A DNA stretch of 64,000 nucleotides from the IMG/VR virus record IMGVR_UViG_3300030098_005649; one strand, 5' to 3'. Under the pieces are notes generated by a model. That model was not told the origin of the DNA and did not search any database. It was given only the letters and a program-made list of their open reading frames with translations. The position numbers and the translations under genes were made by a program. Shown piece after piece: positions 43,550-43,682 of the stretch. The stretch comes from a virus (taxonomy: Duplodnaviria; Caudoviricetes). Position 1 is the first letter of the stretch. Each line of letters opens with the position of its first letter.

Positions 43550-43579
43550 TGTATCAATTTGTTATAACAATCTGAGACA
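43550..43579. promoter_or_regulatory. 30-bp dyad, putative upstream activator sequence for a sigma54 enhancer-binding protein
   Basis: TGTATCA-ATTTGTTATAACAATC-TGAGACA, 24/30 positions symmetric with perfect TTGTTATAACAA core, ~100 bp upstream of -24. Confidence 0.65.
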
Positions 43580-43666
43580 CATTTATCTCCCACACCTAAA
43601 GTAAATTATACCCAACAAATTTTATTTTATTACTATACATAGAGTTATAGAGAATCTCCAAAATTG

Positions 43667-43682
43667 TGGTACAGTTTTTGTA
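43667..43682 (+). promoter_or_regulatory. Sigma54-type -24/-12 promoter of the pilin operon
   Basis: TGGTACAGTTTTTGTA = GG-N10-GT. Confidence 0.65.

Follow-up and report, generated by a model that had tools for sequence, protein, structure and literature searches.

A candidate enhancer-dependent Sigma-54 promoter on the pilin operon of a marine T4-like phage, of the type found on pilus genes in its probable host phylum

The major pilin gene of Pseudomonas aeruginosa, Myxococcus xanthus and Geobacter is controlled by RpoN (Sigma-54) together with PilS-PilR. At the glnAp2 promoter of enteric bacteria, tandem palindromic NtrC sites lie upstream of a -24/-12 promoter, and palindromic sites with a 7-N3-7 build are used by NtrC-family dimers in general. 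Control of pilin genes by RpoN and PilR is also established in Xanthomonas (RpoN2-PilRX of X. oryzae; PMC7170775). The Sigma-54 mechanism involves an upstream activating sequence (UAS) located 100-150 bp upstream, looping of the DNA, and ATP-driven opening of the closed complex that is formed at the -24/-12 element (PMC7057263). Two described cases concern phages: i) cyanophage genes, namely pstS of P-SSM2 and genes of S-PM2d, are placed under the control of the host PhoBR system via Pho boxes, as tested by EMSA and transcriptomics (PMC10976474); and ii) temperate Pseudomonas phages carry prophage-encoded pilus components, P-FimU and P-PilA, of which the protein function was studied (PMC12952977). 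In our search of the literature we came across no description of an enhancer-dependent Sigma-54 promoter that carries sites for the dedicated activator of the host and is conserved across a family of T4-like phages, and nothing directly relevant on the pilins of Marinimicrobia phages.

The window, i.e. the whole stretch of 64,000 nt of phage DNA that was analysed, has a G+C content of 33%, carries all of its genes on the plus strand and shows the gene content of a marine T4-like phage (glycosyltransferases, a CobS/MoxR-type ATPase, Hsp20, a 2OG-Fe(II) oxygenase and two tRNAs). On the contigs of relatives that have the same pilin operon, Gp23, the capsid gene of T4, is also present; when cultured phage genomes were searched with the DNA of the window, the tRNAs were the only matches. 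The control region lies in a gap of 182 bp between a PC4-like gene and a cluster of six genes. The position of the PC4-like gene is not conserved, as several relatives have a different gene upstream. The first gene of the cluster (gene 1) encodes a pilin-like protein in which the cleavage site reads G|NSLAE, and the start of the gene is most likely the ATG that is preceded by GGAG. The features of the region are as follows:

43313-43537, plus strand: PC4-like gene, 74 amino acids (Pfam PC4, E 2.7e-13)
43531-43537: single extra heptamer TGTAACA, equal to the half-site heptamer of the host palindrome; it overlaps the stop codon of the PC4-like gene and is by itself a weak indication
43550-43566: putative activator site A, TGTATCAATTTGTTATA, one mismatch to TGTWWCA-N3-TGWWACA; centre 110 bp upstream of the GG of the box
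43563-43579: putative activator site B, TATAACAATCTGAGACA, two mismatches; centred 97 bp before the GG and sharing 4 bp with site A
43580-43666: putative looping spacer, without IHF consensus or terminator; it is 74% A+T, and short A/T tracts occur at 43603, 43617 and 43625
43667-43682, plus strand: candidate Sigma-54 core promoter TGGTACAGTTTTTGTA (TGGTAC-N5-TTGTA); GG at 43668-43669 (-25/-24), GT at 43680-43681 (-13/-12)
43684-43693, plus strand: A+T-rich segment TATATAAGTA in which the DNA would melt; its last base, the A at 43693, is the predicted +1, placed 12 nt beyond the -12 position; tATATA.gta is conserved in the phages and TATA(T/A)A follows the host boxes
43693-43731, plus strand: predicted 5' UTR with a small stem TTGTTGAACAA (43704-43714) and Shine-Dalgarno GGAG (43722-43725), followed by the ATG at 43732
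43732-46785, plus strand: the controlled six-gene pilin operon, consisting of gene 1, three N_methyl type IV pilin genes (at 44413, 44855 and 45333) and two small ORFs

A first-pass annotation of this DNA had claimed a 30-bp dyad, an AT-rich spacer with a possible IHF bend, and a -24/-12 box. The dyad was recovered at 43550-43579: its arms (43550-43564 and 43565-43579, 15 nt each) adjoin without a gap and pair at 12 of 15 positions (80% complementary), and its core is a perfect 12-bp palindrome, TTGTTATAACAA (43559-43570). The A+T-richness of the spacer was likewise confirmed. The IHF bend was not borne out: no match to WATCAA-N4-TTR with two or fewer mismatches occurs within 43580-43666 on either strand, the consensus used being that of E. 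coli, which may not apply to the host phylum. The box exists and has the exact GG-N10-G spacing, but with respect to the GG-N10-GC rule its dinucleotide at -12 is GT and not GC. It matches TGGCAC-N5-TTGCW at 10 of the 12 specified positions, the two mismatches being a T at -22 and a T for the C at -12. With GT in place of the near-invariant GC, and with the T at -22, the promoter may be weak or behave differently.

When counted inside the window, boxes with two or fewer mismatches to TGGCAC-N5-TTGCW number 19 (14 expected) and palindrome-like sites with two or fewer mismatches number 11 (10 expected). Site A is the sole site with at most one mismatch in the 64 kb (0.84 expected), and the looser pattern TGGYAY-N5-TTGYW is found 4 times (0.65 expected). 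Since neither the dyad nor the box is beyond chance inside the window, the case rests on the comparison with related phages and with hosts. The dyad was also considered as a terminator of the PC4-like gene and rejected as such, because its RNA hairpin reaches only -5.4 kcal/mol (z -0.42) and lacks a T-run, and terminator prediction gave nothing there.

A search of IMG/VR with the gene-1 protein gave 45 loci (64-99% identity), 43 of them with upstream DNA (31 non-redundant), for which the 260 nt upstream were aligned. Most of the spacer proved unalignable and the box formed the information peak within it: tTTGGTAY-N5-TTGTA, followed by tATATA.gta, is kept in 43/43 loci at 51-102 nt before the start codon (family consensus of the 31 non-redundant phages: TTTGGTAY-N5-TTGTA), and the ATG with its GGAG is conserved as well. 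Individual relatives deviate in detail. One has the canonical TGGCAT-N5-TTGCA (L008) and one has TTTC at -12 (L022), and in two others (L011 and L020) TAGTAC replaces TGGTAC while the rest of the layout is kept. Such a change of the GG at -24 to AG would be expected to impair a Sigma-54 promoter severely, and in these two phages the promoter may be weakened or compensated.

The upstream sites stand out more strongly. Between -80 and -200 the 31 non-redundant loci contain 68 palindrome-like sites, against an expectation of 0.28 derived from the remaining 172 kb of these phage loci (~240-fold), and at least one such site is present in 29 of the 31, although their number and distance vary; the position of site A falls inside the range seen in the relatives. 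The distances from site to GG are phased at 10.3-10.5 bp (Rayleigh R 0.56-0.57 for 68 sites that are not independent; because the phage sequences are related, p-values overstate the independence). Such phased placement is what activation from one face of the helix would predict.

These comparisons bear on the possibility that the region is a non-functional relic, carried along with captured pilin genes, or a chance resemblance. The chance frequency of the box and of sites with up to two mismatches within the window would fit such a reading, as would the loss of the GG in two relatives. It is nevertheless extremely unlikely in our view, because box, start spacing and phased heptamer arrays persist in 29-43 loci while the gene-1 proteins have diverged down to 64% identity and the spacer can no longer be aligned; neutral relics would have decayed.

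Two further elements were observed in the related phages. In most relatives (L002-L045) a G+C-rich hairpin followed by a T-run, i.e. a rho-independent terminator, is located between the heptamer array and the box; it is absent from the window and from L001. A terminator at that place, within the loop between enhancer and promoter, would insulate the promoter from read-through. Most relatives also have a 5'-proximal stem-loop (5-nt loop) at 3-6 nt after the predicted start, with stem sequences that differ between phages (mean z -2.1) and with a weak counterpart in the window; it is probably an mRNA-stabilising 5' hairpin.

The phages appear to bring neither the sigma factor nor its activator. 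A profile search of 4 phage records (59-72% complete) yielded no RpoN, and the sole PF00158-like match in the records searched, of the same completeness (51676-52920), was rejected as an activator since it is a MoxR/CbbQ AAA_5 ATPase.

In genome assemblies, homologues of gene 1 were found at 17 loci (40-48% identity). Four of these are assigned to Candidatus Marinimicrobia or Neomarinimicrobiota (the Marinimicrobia/SAR406 phylum is now named Fidelibacterota at NCBI), and others are located on contigs of 220 and 583 kb; the AG-series genomes among the Marinimicrobia loci (AG-470-O07 and AG-390-N21) we take to be single-cell genomes. A Sigma-54 box is present at all 16 cellular loci with upstream DNA, 31-105 nt before the start of the tblastn match; its -24 part reads TGGCAY or TGGTAC (CGGCAT in one case) and its -12 part TTGC or TTGT, with GT at -12 in 4/16. 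A sample of 301 genomes of the phylum gave the same picture. The gene-1 family is present in 17 of them, and 27 of the 28 copies with enough upstream DNA are preceded, at 50-87 nt before the start, by [TC]GG-CAY/TAY-N5-TTG[CT]. The dinucleotide at -12 of these 27 host promoters is GC in 20 cases and GT in 7, and the GT of the phage therefore represents a native variant. The boxes suggest that the gene-1 family is driven by Sigma-54 in cells, and the protein identity of 40-48% together with the shared motifs makes Marinimicrobia/SAR406 the probable host phylum.

There is a difference in bias between the two sets of boxes: those of the phages (L001-L045) nearly all have T at -22 and -12 (TGGTAY, TTGT), whereas those of the hosts (L047-L099) mostly have C (TGGCAY; TTGC in 20/27). 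The T bias could be due to A+T drift, to retuning of the promoter or to an effect of base modification. Host gene-1 paralogues also occur in tandem (G003:C1:18553; G002:C5:226646 and 229128), each with its own near-identical box TGGCACGCC(A/G)TTTGTT, so that the host pilin cluster holds several Sigma-54 promoters.

Upstream of the host boxes, 8 loci have a perfect 17-bp palindrome, TGTWWCA-N3-TGWWACA, centred at a distance of 116-119 bp from the GG. The perfect palindrome is rare, with 1-2 copies per host genome of 1.2-2.5 Mb (0 for the reversed-pattern control), and 7 of the 8 sites recovered from whole genomes belong to a pilus or pilin cluster; six of these have the GG of a pilin promoter 116-119 bp downstream, a distance that is shared by six host genomes. 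Read against the host palindrome, the dyad of the window is two overlapping, degenerate copies of it. The register differs, as sites A and B are offset by 13 bp with centres at 110 and 97 bp, versus 10 or 20 bp and a centre at 117 bp in the hosts. The first-pass annotation had named the upstream regions of host pilin genes as the place to look for the same dyad, and there it does recur in kind, as a palindrome ~117 bp upstream of a canonical Sigma-54 box.

One of the host genomes (G003) contains a second perfect palindrome (L066:4632-4688; G003:C1:10631), located ~175 bp before the REC-pilD-pilB-activator-pilC operon and accompanied by a copy with one mismatch 42 bp later. No Sigma-54 box was found behind this palindrome, which may serve autoregulation by another route. 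In a second genome (G002) another palindrome occurs ~7 kb upstream, at what looks like the same position as in G003.

The probable hosts appear equipped to use these elements. RpoN was recovered from 3 of the 5 genomes of probable hosts, these assemblies being incomplete (MAGs or SAGs; Sigma54_DBD 161-166 bits), and each genome has only 1-2 true enhancer-binding proteins. One NtrC-family activator is encoded between pilB and pilC, next to pilin genes. In G003 the order of the pilus genes is: a REC-only protein, PilD, PilB, the activator, PilC, a protein with an Mrr_cat domain, the palindrome with the box, the gene-1 homologue, a gene-1 paralogue with its own box and then five N_methyl pilins. 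The activator, encoded by the ORF at L059:61-1437, has a Sigma54_activat domain (223 bits) with a GSFTGA loop and an HTH_8 domain (49 bits). Its N-terminus matches Response_reg with an E-value of 4e-4, which is below the Pfam cut-off, although residues 13-379 align to the REC + AAA+ chains of NtrC1 (1ny5, 4l4u); the alignment to NtrC runs from position 43. NCBIfam models returned only generic matches of the NtrC, NifA, AtoC and ZraR type, all below their cut-offs, and no PilS-like kinase was found beside the activator in the G003 neighbourhood or in the 8 kb upstream. The layout had initially been described as of the Sigma-54/PilR type. In architecture and role that description fits (host box, palindrome, RpoN and an activator in the pilus cluster), but it does not extend beyond these, and a PilS-like kinase beside the activator is lacking. 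By association, we infer that the palindrome is the binding site of the regulator from the pilus cluster.

The promoter could instead be a real Sigma-54 promoter of which the dyad and heptamers are bound by some other factor of host or phage, such as a repressor or a nucleoid protein, with another activator in charge or with a GT variant that needs little activator. The hosts do have a second true enhancer-binding protein; the additional G003 palindrome without an obvious Sigma-54 box indicates that the site may in places have a role other than that of an enhancer, and the phage sites are degenerate and variable in number and distance. We nevertheless regard this explanation as unlikely, for three reasons: i) 7 of 8 perfect palindromes fall in the pilus or pilin cluster that also encodes the HTH_8 activator; ii) a 17-bp palindrome of the 7-N3-7 type has the geometry of an NtrC-family dimer; and iii) six host sites keep a distance of 116-119 bp to the GG of the pilin promoter, and the phage sites keep a 10.4-bp phase. 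The pilus-cluster activator remains the favoured candidate for the protein that binds the dyad.

RNA contigs from four metatranscriptome studies map to the operon at high identity, with their most upstream ends at 43693, 43709, 43712 and 43734. As RNA contigs cannot define RNA ends, the coincidence of the first of these with the predicted +1 is only a weak hint of the start. The contigs from the four runs do not cover 43132-43692, a gap that does not speak for silence upstream. No plus-strand Sigma-70 match was found in the intergenic region 43538-43719, and a Sigma-70 promoter for the operon was rejected on this ground, although clear TTGACC...TATATT promoters occur elsewhere in the window. 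Four near-identical strong promoters of the Sigma-70 type (TGCTTGAC[CT]...TATATT/TATTAT; at ~34080, ~34480, ~48690 and ~50868) are presumably the early promoters of the phage and are clearly unlike the pilin promoter. Further TGGTAY-N5-TTG boxes are present at 56014-56029 and 32447-32462, both preceded, ~10 bp upstream, by a GACAATATGACATA element. The former precedes the Hsp20 gene (56039-56572) and is letter-for-letter identical in two relatives (G001 and G010); which sigma factor uses it is ambiguous, as the box overlaps with a perfect extended -10, TGTATAAT.

The box of the pilin operon could instead be a phage-specific promoter (of the T4 middle or late type) or a Sigma-70-type promoter that only looks like a -24/-12 element. 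The phage is T4-like, the T4 late consensus TATAAATA is found at 43692-43699, TATATA at 43684-43689 could be a -10 that also predicts a start near 43696, and there is the overlap of the similar box at 56014 with the extended -10. Two specific forms were rejected: TATAAATA is not conserved in the relatives and not enriched on the coding strand, and TATATARGTA as a family-wide promoter has 3 exact copies in the window and none before the capsid-region genes of the relatives. Moreover, no -35 or TGn stands in register with TATATA, such a promoter would not account for the invariance of TGG and TTG, and the canonical TGGCAC-N5-TTGC is present at the cellular homologues, where no phage is involved. 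We hold this explanation to be very unlikely.

Taken together, we propose, and consider likely, that 43531-43693 is an enhancer-dependent Sigma-54 promoter of the kind found on the pilus genes of the probable host phylum and that it works through the host regulator. In this scheme, host RNA polymerase with RpoN would form a closed complex on TGGTAC-N5-TTGTA (43667-43682), and the NtrC-family regulator from the host pilus cluster would bind as dimers to the two overlapping sites of the dyad, ~120-135 bp upstream of the start. The regulator would then oligomerise, reach the polymerase by looping of the A+T-rich spacer and open the promoter with ATP, upon which the six-gene pilin operon would be transcribed from ~43693. 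The parts of the scheme that we infer are the identity of the bound protein, the dependence on the activator and on RpoN, and the start point.

As the control region is of the same kind as that of the host pilus genes, it is probably the host pilus regulator that decides when the phage pilins are made. If so, both host RpoN and the activation state of the regulator govern phage pilin expression, and the phage pilins are expressed only when the pilus programme of the host is on. The host regulon of this regulator seems to comprise only one or two operons. A more far-reaching and rather doubtful proposal is that the phage DNA, with 1-4 sites per genome, titrates the sole pilus activator off the host genes while driving the phage pilins, with the C-to-T changes at -22 and -12 retuning the promoter, e.g. 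towards a looser dependence on the activator or a fit to the polymerase of the infected cell. If true, the phage would thereby take over the regulation of the host pilus, having captured its enhancer. Apart from mechanism, the shared regulatory code provides independent evidence that links uncultured phages to the uncultured SAR406/Marinimicrobia, and sequence alone here defines the operator, the promoter and the probable regulator of the pilus system of a phylum.

Compared with the described systems, the locus resembles PilS-PilR control in that a pilin operon stands behind GG-N10-G(C/T), an HTH_8 NtrC-family activator is encoded in the pilus cluster and the sites are located ~100-150 bp upstream. 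It differs in that the control region is carried by a lytic T4-like phage without activator or RpoN in the records searched (59-72% complete), an adjacent PilS-type kinase is lacking and -12 is GT, so that the likeness is one of architecture and role. The site differs as well, since the binding repeats of P. aeruginosa PilR are unlike the 17-bp palindrome TGTWWCA-N3-TGWWACA found here. With the NtrC enhancer at glnAp2 and the general Sigma-54 mechanism (PMC7057263) it shares palindromic 7-N3-7 sites, often in tandem and phased upstream of a -24/-12 promoter, and the use of looping and ATP, whereas the half-site sequence is different, an IHF site is not recognisable and the regulon is seemingly limited to the pilus cluster and the phages. 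Like P-FimU and P-PilA (PMC12952977), the operon consists of phage-borne type IV pilin-like genes that would rely on the pilus machinery of the host. Like the PhoBR-controlled cyanophages (PMC10976474), a lytic marine T4-like phage here keeps sites for a host response regulator before host-derived or auxiliary genes; those cases involve Sigma-70-type activation by an OmpR-family regulator on nutrient genes, in contrast to the enhancer-dependent Sigma-54 control of pilins that is deduced here from DNA sequence. The principle of a lytic marine phage with host response-regulator sites is thus known, and its Sigma-54 enhancer version on pilins would be new.
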